A DNA stretch of 64,000 nucleotides, taken from positions 259,611 to 323,610 of IMG/VR virus record IMGVR_UViG_3300035208_004239. One strand, written 5' to 3'. The position numbers were made by a program, and so were the translations under genes. Below are positions 1,225 through 45,300 of the stretch, piece by piece. Every line of letters begins with the position of its first letter. The first letter of the stretch is position 1. The notes beneath the pieces were generated by a model. The model worked only from the letters and a program-made list of their open reading frames with translations, was not told where the DNA came from and made no database searches. This DNA is from a virus. Lineage: Duplodnaviria; Heunggongvirae; Uroviricota; Caudoviricetes.

Positions 1225-1980
1225 ATGATAAAAGGATATACAGTATTTTTTAGTTATGTTTTAGAAACGAATTCAGGTTATGGATATAGCACAGCAATTC
1301 ACTGTAATTACATCAACAGTCTTTATTTGGATTCTATTACAAATAAAGAAGTGAATATTTATTTTAATAATGTTGATGATTTTAAATATTTGTCAAATAA
1401 TATTAATGGTGGAACTGGATATACCGTAAATAAAATTTATTTATTAATTCAACTTATTAATAATTCAACATATACTAATTTAAATACAATAAAACCAGTT
1501 GCTAATGAGTGGAGAAAATACGAAGTAACTGATCAAATTATAGATTATTTTAGTGGTTATACTACAGGAGAATCATTAACACCAACATATTTATGTGGTA
1601 GTATTTTTAAAGTTCCAATTTATAAATATAATACAATGTCAATTTATAATTTGGATTATTTAAATTACCCTTCAATTACTCAAGCAGAATTGAAGGGTGT
1701 AGATGCTCCACTTTGTTTTGGTGATGAACAATATTTTATTGGAAATGTTTCTGCAGATGCAGAAGCAATAGCATATACAACTGATCTTGCCATTAGTTTA
1801 CCACTTAATCAATATAATTCCACAACAAATCCAACTTGGGATCATCTTTCTGAGGTATATATAACTGAAATTGGGTTATATGACAGTACTAAAAAATTAG
1901 TGGCTATTGGTAAATTAAATGATCCTGTCCCTAAAAATTCAACCATTTCCAGAACAATAGTATTTGGTCTTGATTTTTAA
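1225..1980 (+). CDS. hypothetical protein (structural-like, Tyr/Asn-rich)
   Basis: 251-aa ORF immediately after previous gene, same strand. Confidence 0.3.
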   Translation: MIKGYTVFFSYVLETNSGYGYSTAIHCNYINSLYLDSITNKEVNIYFNNVDDFKYLSNNINGGTGYTVNKIYLLIQLINNSTYTNLNTIKPVANEWRKYEVTDQIIDYFSGYTTGESLTPTYLCGSIFKVPIYKYNTMSIYNLDYLNYPSITQAELKGVDAPLCFGDEQYFIGNVSADAEAIAYTTDLAISLPLNQYNSTTNPTWDHLSEVYITEIGLYDSTKKLVAIGKLNDPVPKNSTISRTIVFGLDF

Positions 1981-2064
1981 TTTAAAATAATCATAAAAAT
2001 TTATATTTTTTTATAAAAACTTAGTATTTATTATAAATGAAAAATAAAAAAATTTATAATATAT

Positions 2065-2268
2065 ATGAAAGATTTACTTATACTTAATGTTGCAAAGCCT
2101 AAATCTATTATAATTAATGGTGATTTACACAAAAGATTTAAGGTATTATGTAAAAACAAAAGTTTAAAAATTGGTGGTGTGATTGAAGATTTAATTAGAT
2201 TATATCTTGAAAACCCCAAAAAAATTCAATTAATGATCGAAGATTCAAAAGAAGTAAAAATAAATTAA
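2065..2268 (+). CDS. small DNA-binding protein, ribbon-helix-helix-like (CopG/Arc type)
   Basis: 67 aa; predicted beta-strand SIIINGDLHKRFK followed by two helices (LCKNKSLKIGGVIEDLIRLYLEN), the RHH pattern. Confidence 0.3.
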   Translation: MKDLLILNVAKPKSIIINGDLHKRFKVLCKNKSLKIGGVIEDLIRLYLENPKKIQLMIEDSKEVKIN

Positions 2269-3276: not shown

Positions 3277-4743
3277 ATGACAAAAGAACGAATAGAAAAA
3301 GCAGTAGAAATAATAAAATATGCAATCAAAAATAAAATATCAGTTAAAGAAGCGTCAGTTAAATGTGGATATTCTGACACTTATGTAAAAAATGTTAAAA
3401 GAAAAATTTATGAAGCACACAATAATGGTGTTCTTAAAGAAGGACTTTTAAATATTTTTAATGAAGCATATAAAGAATATAAAAAGGGTAATGAACCTAA
3501 CACATTTTTAACTAAAAAAAATTATTCTGAAAATACTAAAACACACAAACCAGAAGACCTTCCTAAAATAATAAAAGGAGAACAAACAACATTTAAAGTT
3601 AATGGTAATTCTGCAGATATAGAATGGAAATCTGGTGGAAATTATCCTTCTGATCACGTAAGAACACTTGATCAATTATTAAAAATTTGTGAAGTTGATT
3701 TAAATCTTTGGCAAGTAAAAGATTATTTGGTTAATAAATGGGATGTAACAAGTTGGAAAAGTAAATATCCGGAAACACTTCAAAATTTTCAAGTTAAAGC
3801 ACGTTTAGAAAAAAATATTAAAGTAGCTGAAGCAATAGACGTAATTGGAATGTTCAGGGAAATGGTTGAAAATTACGAACCCCCAATATATGATTGGATG
3901 CCTGAAACACCAAAAAGAACTGAAGAAAATAATTTATTAGAAATATCAATATTTGATTTACATATTGGTAAACTTGCTTGGTGTGGGGAAACATACGAAA
4001 ATTATGACACAAAAATTGCTCGTGAAAGATTTTTAATTGCAATTGGAAATTTATTACATCGATCAAGCGGTTTTGAATTTTCAAGAATTTTATTTCCGGT
4101 AGGTAATGATTTTTTTAATTCTGATACAATAACTAATACCACTACAAATGGTACTCCACAGGATGAAGACCTTCGTTGGCAAAAAACATTTAAAATCGGT
4201 TGTAAATTACTTGTTGATGCAATTTATCTATTAAAAGAAACGGGTGTTCCTGTTGATGTAGTTGTTATTCCCGGTAATCATGATTTTGAACGTAGTTATT
4301 ATTTAGGTGAATATTTGGATGCTTGGTTTAGGAATGATCCTGTTATTAACATAGATAATGGTGCATCACCAAGAAAATTCTATCGTTTTGGTGAAGTATT
4401 ACTTGGATTTACGCATGGTAGTGAAGAAAAAGAAGGATCGTTGCCACTAATAATGGCAAGTGATATTATATCTAAACCTATGTGGAGTGAAACAAAATAT
4501 CATGAATGGCATCTTGGTCACATTCATAGAAAAAGAAATGTAAACTATAGTGTTACAGATAAAAAAAGAACCTTAAATGAAGATTTAGGGGTTACAGTGA
4601 GATATCTTTCAAGTCTTACAGGAACAGAAGAATGGCATCATAAAAAAGGTTTTATTGGAGCAATAAAAGCAGCAGATGCGTTTGTTTGGAATGATAAACT
4701 TGGATTAGTAGCACATTTAAATTCAAATTTAATTATAGAGTAA
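3277..4743 (+). CDS. calcineurin-like metallophosphoesterase with N-terminal HTH-like region
   Basis: Metallophosphatase motifs DLHIG, VGNDFF, IPGNHDFE, FTHGSE, LGHIHRK in order; 488 aa. Confidence 0.6.
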   Translation: MTKERIEKAVEIIKYAIKNKISVKEASVKCGYSDTYVKNVKRKIYEAHNNGVLKEGLLNIFNEAYKEYKKGNEPNTFLTKKNYSENTKTHKPEDLPKIIKGEQTTFKVNGNSADIEWKSGGNYPSDHVRTLDQLLKICEVDLNLWQVKDYLVNKWDVTSWKSKYPETLQNFQVKARLEKNIKVAEAIDVIGMFREMVENYEPPIYDWMPETPKRTEENNLLEISIFDLHIGKLAWCGETYENYDTKIARERFLIAIGNLLHRSSGFEFSRILFPVGNDFFNSDTITNTTTNGTPQDEDLRWQKTFKIGCKLLVDAIYLLKETGVPVDVVVIPGNHDFERSYYLGEYLDAWFRNDPVINIDNGASPRKFYRFGEVLLGFTHGSEEKEGSLPLIMASDIISKPMWSETKYHEWHLGHIHRKRNVNYSVTDKKRTLNEDLGVTVRYLSSLTGTEEWHHKKGFIGAIKAADAFVWNDKLGLVAHLNSNLIIE

Positions 4744-4744
4744 A

Positions 4745-5275
4745 ATGGGACAAAAAAATTTAATTAATTTGGGAAAGGGTAAAAATAAAAATATTGAAAA
4801 AAAATTACCCGAAGAAAAAAAAGAATTATCACCTGAAGAAGAGAGAGATTTGAAAGCCAAACAAACCGTTAACGAACTTTTACAGGATGTTAAATTAACA
4901 CCATCAAAAAAAGATGATGATTTTTTTGAAATGGTAGATGAATCAAATAATAAAGGAAGTGAATGGCTTTCTGAGCAAGTAACAATTTTAACCAAAGAAA
5001 ATGAAATTCTTCGTCAGAAAATCGAAATTTCGAAAGAAGATTATAAAAGAATTTTTGCGGAATCTCAAGAAATCAAAACTAATTTAGGTATAGTTGATGA
5101 TAATGTAGTAAAAGCAAAGGTAATTGAATTATTCAACGAATTACAAAATAATTACATTTCGATGGGTATTAATGTAATGGGTGTTGAAAATTTTAGGGTT
5201 AGATTTCCAGCCTTTTTAGAAAGAATGATAATGTTCTTTCCATTTTTAAAGGAAAAGAAAAAATATAAAATTTAA
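4745..5275 (+). CDS. hypothetical protein (K/E-rich, coiled-coil)
   Basis: 176-aa ORF, start 1 nt after previous stop. Confidence 0.4.
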   Translation: MGQKNLINLGKGKNKNIEKKLPEEKKELSPEEERDLKAKQTVNELLQDVKLTPSKKDDDFFEMVDESNNKGSEWLSEQVTILTKENEILRQKIEISKEDYKRIFAESQEIKTNLGIVDDNVVKAKVIELFNELQNNYISMGINVMGVENFRVRFPAFLERMIMFFPFLKEKKKYKI

Positions 5276-5311
5276 CTAATGTGAAATAGAATTAAAATTG
5301 CTTCAATTGAG

Positions 5312-5935
5312 TTGGAGCAATTTTTGTTTACATTGATAATTATGGTTGAAGATATAAATTTAATTAAAGAAGTTTTAAATAAAAATTATAAAGCTGAAAA
5401 ATTATTTTTTGATAAATATAGAAAAATAATTAAAAATTTTTTAAAAAATAAATTTTCAAAAATAGTTATTGATGACATAGATGATTATGTTTCAGATATT
5501 TTAATTAAAGTTTATGAAAATCTTAATAAATATAATATTAAATTTAATTTTAAAACATGGGTATTAACCATAGCCAAACATCATATGATTGATGTTTGGA
5601 GAAATAATGCTATTACTATACCAATTAATAATATTATTTTAGATGAAAATGATGATGAAAATAATTATTGTACAACAACAGGATGTTTAACCTTTAATGA
5701 AAATAGTAGTTTTAGTACATCATGTATTGTAGATTTTGAAAACAATAGTTCAATTTCATATATATCTTCACAATTATCCCCTGAAGATTATACTTTATTA
5801 ACAATGAAGTATATTCAAGGATATGATTATAATGAAATTGCTCAAGAATTTAATCTTACAAGTAGTACAATTAGCAATAAAGTAAATTATATTAAAACTA
5901 AACTAAAAAAAATTAACTTGGAGAGAGATTCATAA
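5312..5935 (+). CDS. RNA polymerase sigma factor (sigma-70/ECF-like)
   Basis: Region-2-like VSDILIKVYENLNKYN...FKTWVLTIAKHHMIDVWRNN and region-4 HTH EDYTLLTMKYIQGYDYNEIAQEFNLTSSTISNKVNYIKTKLKK. Confidence 0.6.
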   Translation: MEQFLFTLIIMVEDINLIKEVLNKNYKAEKLFFDKYRKIIKNFLKNKFSKIVIDDIDDYVSDILIKVYENLNKYNIKFNFKTWVLTIAKHHMIDVWRNNAITIPINNIILDENDDENNYCTTTGCLTFNENSSFSTSCIVDFENNSSISYISSQLSPEDYTLLTMKYIQGYDYNEIAQEFNLTSSTISNKVNYIKTKLKKINLERDS

Positions 5936-5968: not shown

Positions 5969-7327
5969 ATGAAACAAGGTATTTTAGAATATATTAATCT
6001 AAAAAAAGAAATTGCTAAAAGTAAAGAAGGTAGAGATTATATAAAATATATTGTAGTTTCTAATATTAAAAATGAAACGTATAACGTAAAAGATAAACTA
6101 AAAGCTCTTGGTTTTAATTGGGATAGAAGAAATTTTAATTGGTATATATTTGGAAATAAATTAACCCATGATATTCTCGATGGGTTAAAACAAATCAATA
6201 ATGAGTTGAAAACTGATGGTGGACAAACCGAAAATATAGATGAATTTATTTATTCATTAGAATCATTTAGAGAACAAATTAATACTTCATCAGCTACTCC
6301 AGAAGTTAAAGTTAATTTAACATCACTTCTTGATCAATATATTGAAGATATAGCAAATGCTACTGATTCAAGAGCAGCAGATGCTGAAATACAAAAATAT
6401 ATTGAATTTTCACATAAATTTCATAATTATAGTTTTTTAAATTCAATATTAATTTATATTCAAGATAATAATGCAACAAAAGTTGCTGGTCGAAAAAAAT
6501 GGGAAAGTTTAGGTAGACAAGTTATTAATTTAGATAAAAGAATTGTAATTAATTGTTTTAATGAATATTATGTTGATCCTAAAACTGGAAAAAGAATGTC
6601 GTATTCATTAGATCAAAAAAAATCAGATAGAGATTATGTTGCAAAAGTAAAGGGAGGTACTGAACCATTTGATAAGAAAAAAATGGATGATATTGAATCA
6701 AGAACTAAAATCATAAAAACTGGTTTTAGTGATTGTAGTGTTTATGATGTTGCCAATACAACAGGAGAAGCATTACCAGAAGAACCTACATGGAAAGGCA
6801 CGTCTGATGATAGTGCAGATTCAATTGCATTATTTAATATTGCTAAAAAAAGTTTAGAAAATTCGGGTATAAAAGTAACTCAAGACCCATCAAAACAAGG
6901 TGAAGGAGGTTTGAGTGGAATTGGTTATATAAATATTAGTGCTGGTGAAAAAGGTAGTGGTGCTGCTTCGATAATTTTTCATGAATGGGGACATGAATTA
7001 CTTCATCATCCTAATAGTAAGTTTCATAGTAGGTCATTAGAATATTTTGAAAAAAAAGGTGAATTAACATATACACAAATTAAACAAATAAAAGAAGTAC
7101 AGGCAGAAACAATCTCTGCGGTATTATGTAAACATTATGCAATACCTACGAATCAACATCCTACATATATGGCTTTATGGCAAGGACAAGGTGGACTTAA
7201 AAGTAAAGAATTGATTAAAGAAAATATTGAAACTATTAGAGAAGTAAGTAATTTTATAATTAAACAAATTGAACTTAATAAAATAGAATTTGATAAGGCT
7301 AAAGAACTGGTACAACAACAAAAATAA
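5969..7327 (+). CDS. ArdC-like protein (N-terminal ssDNA-binding domain + zincin HExxH metallopeptidase-like domain)
   Basis: FHNYSFLNSILIYIQ..ATKVAGRKKWESLGRQV resembles ArdC N-domain; HEWGHELLHH HExxH motif in C-terminal part. Confidence 0.45.
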   Translation: MKQGILEYINLKKEIAKSKEGRDYIKYIVVSNIKNETYNVKDKLKALGFNWDRRNFNWYIFGNKLTHDILDGLKQINNELKTDGGQTENIDEFIYSLESFREQINTSSATPEVKVNLTSLLDQYIEDIANATDSRAADAEIQKYIEFSHKFHNYSFLNSILIYIQDNNATKVAGRKKWESLGRQVINLDKRIVINCFNEYYVDPKTGKRMSYSLDQKKSDRDYVAKVKGGTEPFDKKKMDDIESRTKIIKTGFSDCSVYDVANTTGEALPEEPTWKGTSDDSADSIALFNIAKKSLENSGIKVTQDPSKQGEGGLSGIGYINISAGEKGSGAASIIFHEWGHELLHHPNSKFHSRSLEYFEKKGELTYTQIKQIKEVQAETISAVLCKHYAIPTNQHPTYMALWQGQGGLKSKELIKENIETIREVSNFIIKQIELNKIEFDKAKELVQQQK

Positions 7328-12580: not shown

Positions 12581-12745
12581 ATGAGTGACGAAAAAGAAAT
12601 TGCTGAATTAATTAAAAAAGCATTACTAATAGTAGATGAATTATCGTTTTACGATTTTGATGAAATTGATGATCAAGAAAAATTGGAAAAGTTAATTAAG
12701 AAAGCAAAAAATTTAACAAGAAATAAATTATGGAAACTAAAATAA
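12581..12745 (+). CDS. small acidic hypothetical protein
   Basis: 54-aa ORF starting 2 nt after previous stop; overlaps start of next ORF in another frame. Confidence 0.25.
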   Translation: MSDEKEIAELIKKALLIVDELSFYDFDEIDDQEKLEKLIKKAKNLTRNKLWKLK

Positions 12746-13077
12746 AAGATAAATGGTGCACTTATGGTGCATGGGGTAAAAAATCACCAACATTTATCGG
12801 AAAATTACTTGAACAACTTGATAAATCTGGAACAATTTTATATTCAGAATCACAAATGTATCCACCTGAATTATGGGATATGGGTTATGTTGAACTATTT
12901 GATACAGTAGAAGAAGCCATAATTTATATGATGAAAAATGATTTTTATAATAGAAGCTTAAATCGTATAAGAGAAAATTTAAGTTTTCCTTCTGATACAA
13001 ATAATATTGATTGGAACAATTTAAGTAAAATTGAAGAGGAAATAAATGAAAAAAAGATACATGGAATCAAATACTAA
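12730..13077 (+). CDS. hypothetical protein
   Basis: 115-aa ORF. Confidence 0.35.
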   Translation: METKIKDKWCTYGAWGKKSPTFIGKLLEQLDKSGTILYSESQMYPPELWDMGYVELFDTVEEAIIYMMKNDFYNRSLNRIRENLSFPSDTNNIDWNNLSKIEEEINEKKIHGIKY

Positions 13078-41761: not shown

Positions 41762-42263
41762 GATTAAATCAAAACAAATTACTACCATTGAAATGGAATT
41801 TGCAATTTCAATTTTATTTGGTATTAGAAAACACATTATTGTACCTAATCTATCTTGGGGTTTTGTTTCGCATGAATGTGATATTTTTTTAGTGAAAAAA
41901 AGTAGATATGCTGTTGAAGTTGAGATTAAAAGAAGTTATAGTGATTTTATGGCTGATTTTAATAAAAGTCATCATCATAAAGAAAGAAATAATAAAATTG
42001 CAGAATTTTATTATGCATTCCCTTCAACAATAGTTGATAGATGTAGAGATTTAGTTCCAGAAGGAGTTGGAATTATTGTTTGTGAAAGACAAAAAACTAC
42101 AGAAACAATTTGGGCAAGTATAGAAAGACGACCAATAAAAATAAAAAATTCAAGAAAATTAACAATAGAAGAAGTATTAAAAGTAGCGTCTTTAGGTTGT
42201 ATGAGAATTTGGAACTTAAAAAGTAAAGTTGTTAATTTACAAAATCAAATTAAGAATGGATAA
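41733..42263 (+). CDS. PD-(D/E)XK-family nuclease-like protein
   Basis: ECDIFLVKK...AVEVEIKRS (D-x(n)-E-x-K) pattern. Confidence 0.3.
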   Translation: MKSKIQKPIKIKSKQITTIEMEFAISILFGIRKHIIVPNLSWGFVSHECDIFLVKKSRYAVEVEIKRSYSDFMADFNKSHHHKERNNKIAEFYYAFPSTIVDRCRDLVPEGVGIIVCERQKTTETIWASIERRPIKIKNSRKLTIEEVLKVASLGCMRIWNLKSKVVNLQNQIKNG

Positions 42264-42843
42264 GCCAGTATTTAAAAATAAACCTAATGAACATATAATA
42301 ATTCGTCATGAATTTAAAAATACTATTAATACTATTGATTATTGGATTAGTCGTGCTGTGGCTGTGGTCGGAATCGTATTCGTTATACCGTTGGTTGGTG
42401 GCATTCAAACTCTTATCACCAGAAGAACAATGGAAATGCCTGATGAAGCCGGAAAATTTGGTTTACCTTGTGGTTATTTGGATTTTGATGAAACTGGTTA
42501 TGATGCTATGGTGAGAGAAGTTTATGAAGAAACATCATTATATCTTCCTAAATATAAAAAATATTTAGTTTTAAATAATAATGAACAACCATTTACTGTT
42601 CATGATAAACCATCCAGAGATTCAAGACAAAATGTTTCTTTAATATATCTTTCAGTTTATGATTTTCATGAAGCAATGGATCAATTTCCATTAGATATTT
42701 TAAAATATACAGATAAAGAAACCTCGGAAGTTAAATGGATGTTATTAACTGATTTTTATTGTAAATTTGATAGAGAATATGAATGGGCATTTAAACATAA
42801 TGAAACCATAAAAGAAGCATTAATATTTTTCAATAATAAATAA
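42256..42843 (+). CDS. Nudix hydrolase (N-terminal hydrophobic segment)
   Basis: Nudix box CGYLDFDETGYDAMVREVYEETSL (Gx5Ex7REuxEExGu); ORF-track start 42229 is in frame, internal Met 42256 more likely. Confidence 0.6.
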   Translation: MDKPVFKNKPNEHIIIRHEFKNTINTIDYWISRAVAVVGIVFVIPLVGGIQTLITRRTMEMPDEAGKFGLPCGYLDFDETGYDAMVREVYEETSLYLPKYKKYLVLNNNEQPFTVHDKPSRDSRQNVSLIYLSVYDFHEAMDQFPLDILKYTDKETSEVKWMLLTDFYCKFDREYEWAFKHNETIKEALIFFNNK

Positions 42844-42844
42844 A

Positions 42845-44272
42845 ATGAAATCACCTGAAAATCAATTATTATTATCAAGTGGTAAAATAATTACTTTTAA
42901 TCCTGAACAGCTTGATGGATTAAATAAAATAAAATCTTGGCTCAGAAATGGGCAAACGTTTTTTACATTAGCGGGATCGGCTGGTTCAGGAAAAAGTACT
43001 ATGGTAAAAAAAATTTTAGAAAATTATCGTGGTGGGGTTGTCGTAACTGCACCTACACATAAAGCAGTTAAAGTAATTTCAAATATTACTAAAAAAGAAG
43101 GTAATACACTGCATTCATTACTTGGACTTCGACCTGATGTTGATTTAATAACATTTGATCCAAATCGTCCTCAATTTAATCCAATTGCAATTCCAAAAAT
43201 TAATGACTTTAATTTTGTAATTGTTGACGAAGCAAGTATGATAAATAAGGAATTATTTAATTTAATTAATGAAAAAGCTAAAAATAGTAGTATTAAAATT
43301 TTATTTATTGGAGATTCTGCTCAATTACCACCAGTTAATGAAGACATTTCTATTGTTTTCATTGAAAATAAAATAGAAAAACACATATTATTTAAAATTG
43401 AAAGACAAAAAGATGGTAATCCAATTTTAATTACATGTGATAATATTAGAAATAATTTAAATATTATTGATGGTGGATACGTAAGAGAAACAAATATTAA
43501 TAACATTGGAGATGGTATAATATTTACAATAAATAAAAATGAATTTAGAAATTTATGTATAAAAAAATTCACTTCCGAAGAATATAAAAAAGATATTGAT
43601 TATTGTAAAGGTCTTGCATGGAGAAACCAAACGGTTATGGAATCTAATAAAATAATTAGAAATATTTTATTTGGTGAAAAAAGTGATATTATTGAAATTA
43701 ATGATGTACTAACTGGATATAGAACAATAACTACCGAAAATCAAAATACTATAATCATTCAAAATTCTGGAGATTATCAAATAATTGAAAAATTCAATAT
43801 TGAAGAAAATTCTTATGGAATTAAAGGTTTTAGAGTTAAACTTAAAGAAAATCTTTTAAATGGTTTAAATAAATTTCAAGATATTTTTATTATCGATATT
43901 AAAGATCATCAAAATTTACATTTATATGGTGACATGCATGATTATTTTCGTGATATGGGTAAGTCAAATAAAAAAATGTGGAAAAAATATTATGAATTTA
44001 GAAGAAATAATATTTTAATGTGTGATATTAATAAATATAGTAATGGTCAATTAAGAAATAATTCAGATATTATAGTAAAAGATATTGATTATGGTTATTT
44101 TTTAACTGTACATAAAAGTCAGGGTTCAACATATAAACATGTTATGGTTATTGAGAGTGATTTAAATCTAAATCGAGATGTGGTTGAAAAAAATAAATTA
44201 AAATATGTTGCATTTTCTCGACCAGAAAAAACTTGTACTGTTCTTACTACAAAGATTGATAATTATCAATAA
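42845..44272 (+). CDS. SF1B DNA helicase (Dda/RecD-like)
   Basis: Walker A LAGSAGSGKST, Walker B VIVDEASMI, motif VI TVHKSQGSTYKHVMV. Confidence 0.75.
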   Translation: MKSPENQLLLSSGKIITFNPEQLDGLNKIKSWLRNGQTFFTLAGSAGSGKSTMVKKILENYRGGVVVTAPTHKAVKVISNITKKEGNTLHSLLGLRPDVDLITFDPNRPQFNPIAIPKINDFNFVIVDEASMINKELFNLINEKAKNSSIKILFIGDSAQLPPVNEDISIVFIENKIEKHILFKIERQKDGNPILITCDNIRNNLNIIDGGYVRETNINNIGDGIIFTINKNEFRNLCIKKFTSEEYKKDIDYCKGLAWRNQTVMESNKIIRNILFGEKSDIIEINDVLTGYRTITTENQNTIIIQNSGDYQIIEKFNIEENSYGIKGFRVKLKENLLNGLNKFQDIFIIDIKDHQNLHLYGDMHDYFRDMGKSNKKMWKKYYEFRRNNILMCDINKYSNGQLRNNSDIIVKDIDYGYFLTVHKSQGSTYKHVMVIESDLNLNRDVVEKNKLKYVAFSRPEKTCTVLTTKIDNYQ

Positions 44273-44492
44273 TATATTTTTTCCCTCCTAAACGATTTTT
44301 ATTGTTTAATTTTGCCAATCTCATTTTTTCTTTAGATATTTCAGTGTGTTTTTTTCCAATCCAATGATTTTTAAATTTTTTGGTTTCTTTCATTTTATTT
44401 TTAGTTTCATTAGTATGTTTTTTATTTAACCATAATTTTAATCCTTTGTGACCGATGCTAATTTTTTCTTTACTTTCATTAGATTGAATTAA
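44247..44492 (-). pseudogene. homing-endonuclease remnant: NUMOD3-like DNA-binding repeats with no catalytic domain and no start codon
   Basis: Minus-strand open frame (stop to stop) LIQSNESKEKISIGHKGLKLWLNKKHTNETKNKMKETKKFKNHWIGKKHTEISKEKMRLAKLNNKNRLGGKKYIIDNYQSL; three G/N-KKHT-x-E-x-K-x-K-M/I repeats; 3' end overlaps helicase gene antisense. Confidence 0.45.
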
Positions 44493-44543
44493 TTAATTTA
44501 GTATCTTTATCCAAAGATAATTAATATAATTGGAATAATTAAT

Positions 44544-44804
44544 ATGAAAAAATTTACACATGGTATTGTAGTAATCGATCCAATACCTGATGAAAATGAT
44601 GAAGTGGAAATAGTACATTTTATTGGTTTATGGGAAGCACCTACTAAAGAAGTATTTTTACAATATGAAAAAGAAATAAAAACCGATCCTGAATTTGGTT
44701 TAATTGAAATTATTGATAGAATTGAAGTTTTACCTGCATCAGAAGAAATTTTAGAAATGTATAATAAAATGGTACAGGAACATGAATTAAGTAAATTAAA
44801 TTAA
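44544..44804 (+). CDS. hypothetical protein
   Basis: 86-aa ORF. Confidence 0.4.
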   Translation: MKKFTHGIVVIDPIPDENDEVEIVHFIGLWEAPTKEVFLQYEKEIKTDPEFGLIEIIDRIEVLPASEEILEMYNKMVQEHELSKLN

Positions 44805-44805
44805 T

Positions 44806-45300
44806 ATGGAAAGAATAACTGATACACATGTATTTTTTTGGGGTGGTATATTATCAAATTGGTATCCAATTAAATTTAAATATAAACATTTCACTTTTTT
44901 TAATACAGAACAAGCATTTATGTGGGAAAAGGCTGTTTATTTTGGTGATATGAATATTGCTGAAGAAATTATGAAAACACCCAATCCAAGAGAAGCCAAA
45001 AAATTAGGACGTAAAGTTATTAATTTTAATGCAGATACTTGGACAAATATTTCATATCAAATAATGGTTGATGTTAATTTAGCTAAATTTGAACAAAATA
45101 GAATTCTTTCACACGTATTACTTTCAACCGAAAGTAAAATAATTGTCGAAGCAAGTCCCAATGATCGAATATGGGGAATTGGTCTTCATTGGAGTGATGA
45201 TAAATGTCTTGATAAAAGTAATTGGCAAGGCACTAATCTATTAGGTAAAGCATTAATGGATGTAAGAAAAGAATTAATTAATAAATATAATGAAGATTGA
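44806..45300 (+). CDS. NADAR-domain (YbiA-like, DUF1768) protein
   Basis: FFWGGILSNWYP ~ YbiA FYSTSDDYGDFSNFAAWP; TEQAFMWEKAVYF ~ SEHYFQAQKF; KFEQN; IVEASPNDRIWGIG ~ LVEHTENDAYWGDG. Confidence 0.65.
   Translation: MERITDTHVFFWGGILSNWYPIKFKYKHFTFFNTEQAFMWEKAVYFGDMNIAEEIMKTPNPREAKKLGRKVINFNADTWTNISYQIMVDVNLAKFEQNRILSHVLLSTESKIIVEASPNDRIWGIGLHWSDDKCLDKSNWQGTNLLGKALMDVRKELINKYNED

Follow-up and report, generated by a model that had tools for sequence, protein, structure and literature searches.

A probable remnant of a Seg-like GIY-YIG homing endonuclease gene beside the Dda-like helicase gene of an uncultivated phage-like genome

We analysed a 64-kb stretch of the IMG/VR virus record IMGVR_UViG_3300035208_004239 (the window, meaning the whole of this stretch, in all six frames where so stated), in which a gene for a Dda-like helicase is followed by a gap of 271 bp. 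The minus strand of this gap carries an open frame with NUMOD3-type repeats, which a sequence-only reading had taken to be a decayed homing endonuclease gene (HEG) and which we describe here as a probable HEG remnant. The window has a G+C content of about 25% throughout, and from about 33.7 kb onward nearly all of its long open reading frames (ORFs) lie on the plus strand. The locus contains the following features:

42229-42843: Nudix-like gene, a label given from sequence motifs in our own reading
42845-44272, plus strand: Dda-like SF1 helicase gene, 475 aa (Pfam AAA_30, AAA_19 and UvrD_C_2; PHROG 325, Dda-like helicase, E=6e-89)
44247-44492, minus strand: probable homing endonuclease remnant, 81 codons plus TAG, NUMOD3 DNA-binding region only
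44442-44483, minus strand: NUMOD3 repeat 1, the weak copy among the three NUMOD3 stretches, SNESKEKISIGHKG
44376-44432, minus strand: NUMOD3 repeat 2, WLNKKHTNETKNKMKETKK, with a pattern match at 44391-44426; DNA repeat D1
44304-44363, minus strand: NUMOD3 repeat 3, WIGKKHTEISKEKMRLAKLN, with a pattern match at 44322-44357
44250-44303, minus strand: C-terminal tail, NKNRLGGKKYIIDNYQSL; the helicase 3′ end overlaps its last 8 codons in antisense
44247-44393, minus strand: 48-aa ORF from an internal ATG at 44393, the sole start-to-stop ORF in the remnant
44493-44495, minus strand: TAA bounding the frame upstream, at the expected junction with the GIY-YIG catalytic domain
44273-44543: gap of 271 bp between the helicase gene and the 86-aa gene, extra DNA by comparison with relatives whose site is empty
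44544-44804, plus strand: conserved 86-aa gene, function unassigned, forming the other edge of the insertion site
44806-45300: NADAR-domain gene, next after the 86-aa gene

The minus strand of 44247-44492 is a single open frame of 81 codons, LIQSNESKEKISIGHKGLKLWLNKKHTNETKNKMKETKKFKNHWIGKKHTEISKEKMRLAKLNNKNRLGGKKYIIDNYQSL, closed by a stop. This TAG (44247-44249) lies 21 nt upstream of the helicase stop codon (44270-44272), and the frame overlaps the helicase gene by 26 nt, so that it does run antisense into the helicase stop as had been described. At its other end, only 48 bp separate the bounding TAA from the start of the 86-aa gene, and the sequence upstream of that TAA runs antisense to this conserved gene. 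The 271-bp gap is thereby made up of most of the remnant (44273-44492), the TAA and these 48 bp. Its T-richness is also as reported, with T at 130 of the 246 frame bases on the plus strand. The lack of a start codon holds for the whole frame, as codons 1-33 contain no ATG, GTG or TTG, but not for all of its parts, given the internal ATG that opens the 48-aa ORF. This shorter ORF is identical to P0001, a JGI 'hypothetical protein' whose longest contig is 327244 bp, and it scores 22.9 bits against NUMOD3. Direct DNA repeats within the remnant are spaced 69 and 72 nt apart, which fits repeated modules of 23-24 codons.

The Pfam check that had been proposed gave a clear result. NUMOD3 (PF07460) matches the 81-codon frame in three stretches with 39.4 bits and E=5.7e-10, well above the curated gathering threshold of 20.4 bits, and the best stretch (residues 23-58) corresponds to repeat 2; three repeats, the first of them weaker, had been predicted. 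A chance open frame in A/T-rich intergenic DNA could in principle yield a Lys/Asn-rich translation that mimics NUMOD3 by composition, and the low G+C content of the window and the 53% A on the minus strand at the remnant are what such an account would draw on. However, a strict NUMOD3-type pattern occurs at only two adjacent places in the six frames of the 64 kb, both in the remnant, and had no match in 12000 translated dinucleotide shuffles. In the same number of such shuffles the best score against a HEG family profile was 11.7 bits, compared with 20.5 bits for the remnant, and the frame stayed open in 0 of 5000 dinucleotide-preserving shuffles. A HMMER search of 1.84 billion representative proteins returned 164 relatives at E<=1e-3, the best at 5e-16, nearly all of them 160-350 aa long; the best of these are matched in their middle or C-terminal part. 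Together with the DNA-level similarity to a syntenic HEG given below, these pattern, shuffle, Pfam and library results refute the chance reading, to which we leave a negligible probability.

The state of this site in relatives was established from a search with the helicase protein, which gave 6 viral and 42 metagenomic loci, and a search with the 86-aa gene, which gave 3 more. The total is 51 loci (L numbers below), and 48 of them include the helicase 3′ end. Leaving out the distant loci L047 and L048, their helicases are 56-65% identical to that of the window. The site is occupied in 12 of the 48 loci (L001-L004, L007-L010, L012, L022, L030 and L038) by an intact gene of 220-299 aa on the minus strand, in the same antisense orientation as the remnant. 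The stop codon of this gene abuts the helicase stop in all 12 cases, and Pfam identifies each of the 12 as a GIY-YIG and NUMOD3 gene. Four further loci (L017, L036, L070 and L071) have the gene order of the window, helicase followed by the 86-aa gene, with an empty site: the helicase stop and the start of the 86-aa homologue overlap or are a few nt apart, and the homologue is 55-61% identical in the first three and 35% identical in L071. The site is empty in L005, L016 and L018 as well, where the NADAR gene directly follows the helicase gene. Because empty-site relatives with the same gene order exist, 44273-44543 is extra DNA, and on these alignments the gap lies at a site polymorphic for the HEG. 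The past insertion of a mobile endonuclease beside the helicase gene, as the sequence-only reading had it, is thus borne out by the occupied and the empty loci alike, and the intact endonuclease that had been expected at the same place in relatives is there in 12 of them. No remnant-like piece is present at this site in the other 47 loci. In L069, a gap of similar size was considered as another remnant and rejected; it holds an unrelated 87-aa plus-strand ORF, which parts the helicase gene from a 61% homologue of the 86-aa gene.

The best pairwise match of the remnant is the syntenic HEG of L022, with a Smith-Waterman score of 133 against a shuffle mean of 43 (z=13.6), in an ungapped alignment of 48 aa that begins just after the L022 GIY-YIG domain. 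The HEG of L030 is the second-best match (z=8.3). Repeat 1 aligns with SDESKMKMSIALKG of the L030 HEG, and repeat 3 aligns without gaps with FWVGRKHSEESKEKMREGSKG of the L022 HEG and also with SWIGRKHTPESKEKMRLAKLG of P0017, a GIY-YIG and NUMOD3 protein from an unrelated phage contig. At the DNA level, a 133-nt alignment of 44277-44406 with the interior of the L022 HEG shows 71% identity, and the two are oriented alike with respect to the helicase gene. The family profile, built from ten intact genes of the group (222 positions), matches the remnant with E=1.1e-4 over positions 100-157, which is the NUMOD3 region only; the alignments to the L022, L030 and P0017 proteins are likewise confined to their NUMOD3 regions. 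Among cultured phages, genes annotated as SegD or Seg-like share 30-34% identity with the L022 HEG. A tblastn search with the remnant fragment itself found no match in cultured phages, for which low-complexity masking is possibly responsible. We take the parent to have been a Seg-like free-standing GIY-YIG endonuclease, because the syntenic alignment, the profile, the library matches and the Seg-like identity all point there.

The same data bear on whether the piece derives from another kind of endonuclease, HNH or intron-encoded rather than free-standing GIY-YIG. NUMOD3 is common to I-TevI and I-BmoI, both GIY-YIG enzymes, and to the HNH enzyme I-HmuI (PMC3664794), and with the catalytic domain gone the family cannot be read directly from the remnant. 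Nevertheless, a GIY-YIG domain lies N-terminal to the NUMOD3 repeats in 8 of the 10 library proteins examined by Pfam (P0017 and nine of the top ten), and HNH in none of them. None of the 12 intact genes at the syntenic site has HNH, all of them being GIY-YIG, and the site is intergenic, without intron-like structure or an Rfam match. An origin from such an enzyme is therefore very unlikely, and of the earlier suggestion of a GIY-YIG or HNH parent only the GIY-YIG half stands.

The remnant lacks the GIY-YIG catalytic domain of about 95 residues as well as a start codon. GIY-YIG (PF01541) has no match in the frame or its upstream extension, and a domain-only profile finds nothing significant in any frame of the 64 kb, in agreement with the earlier statement that no catalytic domain is present. 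This also removes the idea of a split endonuclease with its catalytic half elsewhere in the window. An apparent GIY-YIG trace next to the frame was rejected as an artefact. It is a putative tail past the TAA (RYWIDYYNTMCKFFHINYSN, from tblastn with the L003 HEG; the 'RYWIDYYNT' resemblance), and it runs antisense to the 86-aa gene at the conserved N-terminus of the latter. The HEG-less L017 has, in our own reading, 'LIQWIDCYNSM' there too, and Pfam finds no GIY-YIG domain. Elsewhere in the window, a 54-codon stretch at 12746-12907 on the plus strand scores 10.9 bits against the GIY-YIG part of the HEG profile (E=0.035 within the window). It lies off-frame within a 115-aa ORF (12730-13077) that is likely a real gene, and the score is probably noise.

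Evidence on the 3′ end of the remnant points in two directions. The tail matches the very end of P0017, NKNRLGGNKYFENLIK before its stop, in an alignment of 57% over 54 aa that finishes 5-7 residues from both C-termini, and on this match the remnant may keep its native, undecayed end. The tail is similar as well to the beginning of the C-terminal domain of about 50 aa found in the syntenic genes (NRNRVGSYEIYNINN in the L030 HEG). The window helicase has a unique 3-residue C-terminal extension, NYQ, while 45 relatives end 0-1 residue after the conserved Asp. A second deletion, removing the C-terminal domain and the original helicase stop, would fit these two sequence features. Across the end of the helicase gene, at 44255-44270, lies a perfect 16-bp palindrome, ATTGATAATTATCAAT, both strands of which read IDNYQ, and the palindrome/NYQ site could be a deletion junction. 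As evidence we give the palindrome itself no weight, since by our calculation about 6 of this kind would turn up by chance in 64 kb of such DNA.

The unbroken state of the frame bears on its age. Stop codons would be created by 54 of the 729 possible substitutions (about 7%), 44 of the 81 codons are one step from a stop, and after about 30 random substitutions the frame would have only a 10% chance of staying open. Since no stop interrupts the frame despite this exposure, its truncation probably happened recently when set against the divergence from any of the relatives sampled. Where the gene had been described as 'decayed', the unbroken frame thus argues for recent truncation over long decay, and the 3′ end may be native.

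The open frame also invites a different account, in which the fragment was domesticated: a nuclease-dead NUMOD3 peptide that binds DNA would be made from the 48-aa ORF or, with an unusual start, as a longer product. Such a peptide might block cleavage at the old recognition site by the endonucleases of co-infecting phages, or might act as a local regulator. The unbroken frame with its many near-stop codons fits this account, as do the calling of the 48-aa ORF as a gene and its score above the NUMOD3 cut-off, and a promoter-like site lies just upstream on the minus strand (44550-44523). Against it, two thirds of the first repeat pair lie upstream of the sole start codon, and promoter-like sites are no commoner at the remnant than in shuffles (8 versus 10.8). 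The short form has no conserved homologue, and there is no such piece at this site in the other loci. Two short 'NUMOD3-only' proteins among the library hits, P0129 and P0091 (loci L073 2169-2755 and L072 3-398), were examined, and the gene of each directly follows a separate ORF with a GIY-YIG domain. They belong to endonuclease genes broken in two by a frameshift, a stop or a sequencing error. As both are the second half of such a GIY-YIG gene, nothing points to an independent NUMOD3-only family. No terminator was predicted in a scan of the locus, and the gap gave no credible Rfam match and a folding z-score of -0.17 for structured RNA. Taken together, domestication is unlikely. Its most specific form, in which the NUMOD3 piece is kept and expressed as a nuclease-dead peptide that protects the helicase 3′ end from related endonucleases, is slimmer still; if true, the DNA-binding domain of the invader itself would have become an 'anti-homing' immunity factor.

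Considering all of this, the element is very probably a non-functional remnant of a free-standing Seg-like GIY-YIG HEG that once lay convergent against the 3′ end of the Dda-like helicase gene. Several points weigh against this interpretation. The remnant is only modestly similar to the syntenic HEGs other than those of L022 and L030. The helicase and 86-aa gene searches found no relative above 65% helicase identity, and thus no closer relative with the same remnant, so that direct descent from the HEG lineage at this site is not provable. The fully open 81-codon frame could be due to purifying selection on a translated product and not to a young age, and an ATG-initiated 48-aa ORF that passes the NUMOD3 cut-off is present. 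Nor can the lack of a ribosome-binding site at the remnant be held against translation, because this genome does not use Shine-Dalgarno sites: a Shine-Dalgarno-like core is absent upstream of the start in 40 of the 58 long ORFs of the window, a 4-nt core is found in only one, and initiation seems to be independent of Shine-Dalgarno pairing, as it is in phages that infect, for example, Bacteroidota.

The biology of free-standing HEGs of the Seg and Mob types, including their cycle of degeneration and loss (PMC2988022), suggests how the remnant would have arisen. The intact element would have cut the HEG-less allele in a co-infecting phage, probably in or beside the helicase 3′ end, which makes the helicase gene the likely target of the endonuclease. 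Repair of the double-strand break would then have copied the element in and co-converted flanking sequence. With the element fixed, selection on the nuclease would lapse, and a deletion would remove the 5′ part of about 300 bp and possibly the 3′ C-terminal domain too. What is left, without nuclease activity, would most likely be neutral debris en route to loss, and the window would represent the degenerate stage of the HEG cycle.

Some variation in the helicase gene may be connected with this cycle. The last 53 or so residues of the helicase (44110-44272 in the window) are decoupled from the rest of the protein: the window and L005 share 76% in this segment against 59% elsewhere, and L001 and L030 share 83% against 67%. 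The C-terminal sequence types partly track the presence of the HEG and not identity over the rest of the protein. These types may be co-conversion tracts or mark clean HEG loss, which is only suggestive given the short segment and the small sample. L013 has the HEG-associated C-terminal type without a HEG, and a (TA)n run after its helicase stop.

Some helicase homologues of the group are also interrupted in frame by inteins, which show LAGLIDADG-like motifs and are about 400 aa long in L024 and 370 aa in L036; the window helicase carries neither. The helicase genes concerned and the insertion points are:

L036 2726-5278, also in L034: intein after the P-loop GK
L024 3944-6637, also in L035, L039, L045 and L046: intein between HK and SQGST of a C-terminal helicase motif

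The helicase gene of this group thus hosts inteins at two positions besides the HEG site.

The intact HEGs of the group have a further companion. A conserved ORF of 51-70 aa (with the elements YSIRIHPEQLKYLR, NFTTVTQYIIDL and KDMKN, in this order) precedes almost every intact GIY-YIG gene and overlaps its start, so that judged by gene arrangement the mobile unit looks like a two-gene cassette of the small ORF and the HEG. The small ORF has no Pfam match and left no trace in the window. It precedes the HEG at these positions, and also in L030 and L038:

L001 5848-6003, minus strand
L004 6829-7041, minus strand
L007 3088-3267, minus strand
L010 6127-6282, minus strand
L022 about 6335-6469, minus strand
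L027 about 1963-2103, minus strand

A second decayed HEG is found in L008 (2704-2847, minus strand), where only the C-terminal 38 or so residues of a paralogous HEG remain (E=5.8e-10 against the family profile). This piece is found immediately upstream of the Nudix gene; at that place L001, L002, L004 and L012 have an intact copy of 265 aa, flanked by a 173-aa gene and the Nudix gene. In L006, a 422-aa ORF that we read as TnpB/IS605 OrfB-like (4262-5890) lies just upstream of the helicase gene, and the ORF after it, of 114 aa, is similar at its N-terminus to the small HEG-associated ORF in tblastn.

For annotation, our analysis explains both a 271-bp 'intergenic' stretch and a 48-aa JGI 'hypothetical protein' as probable HEG debris. 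One insertion site is seen empty, occupied by an intact gene and truncated, a natural series in an uncultivated phage-like lineage of about 25% G+C. This is an ordinary outcome of homing-endonuclease turnover; the series could serve studies of that process, and the current understanding of it is unchanged.

Several known systems offer a comparison. The window site resembles those of the T4-type Seg HEGs, such as SegE next to uvsW and the SegD of KVP40, in lying between conserved phage replication genes and in being polymorphic for presence and absence. The intact copies in relatives of the window likewise join a GIY-YIG domain to a NUMOD3 DNA-binding region, whereas the window copy has neither catalytic domain nor start codon and cannot be an active Seg enzyme. 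Cleavage and homing in this clade are proposed by analogy with the Seg genes. We know of no described counterpart among the T4 Seg genes of the small upstream ORF that accompanies the HEG in most relatives. P0017, the 159-aa protein from the unrelated 36% G+C phage contig L049, resembles the remnant over the 54 aa of their alignment (KEKMRLAKLGNKNRLGGNKY against KEKMRLAKLNNKNRLGGKKY), but it is intact, retains its GIY-YIG domain and lies among structural genes on the same strand as its neighbours. NUMOD3 is a minor-groove-binding helix module of I-TevI, I-BmoI and I-HmuI, and I-BmoI has three predicted NUMOD3 repeats (PMC3664794), the same number as the window remnant. In these enzymes the repeats are linked to a nuclease domain and, as a rule, to a helix-turn-helix module too, whereas the repeats in the window stand alone. 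The closest parallel in fate is I-TevIII of the T4 nrdB intron, which has been called defunct in an account that describes the cycle of degeneration and deletion (PMC2988022); there too, a function-less endonuclease gene persists as a fragment. The window remnant differs from I-TevIII in being free-standing rather than intron-borne, and in having lost its N-terminal nuclease domain entirely while the frame is otherwise clean.

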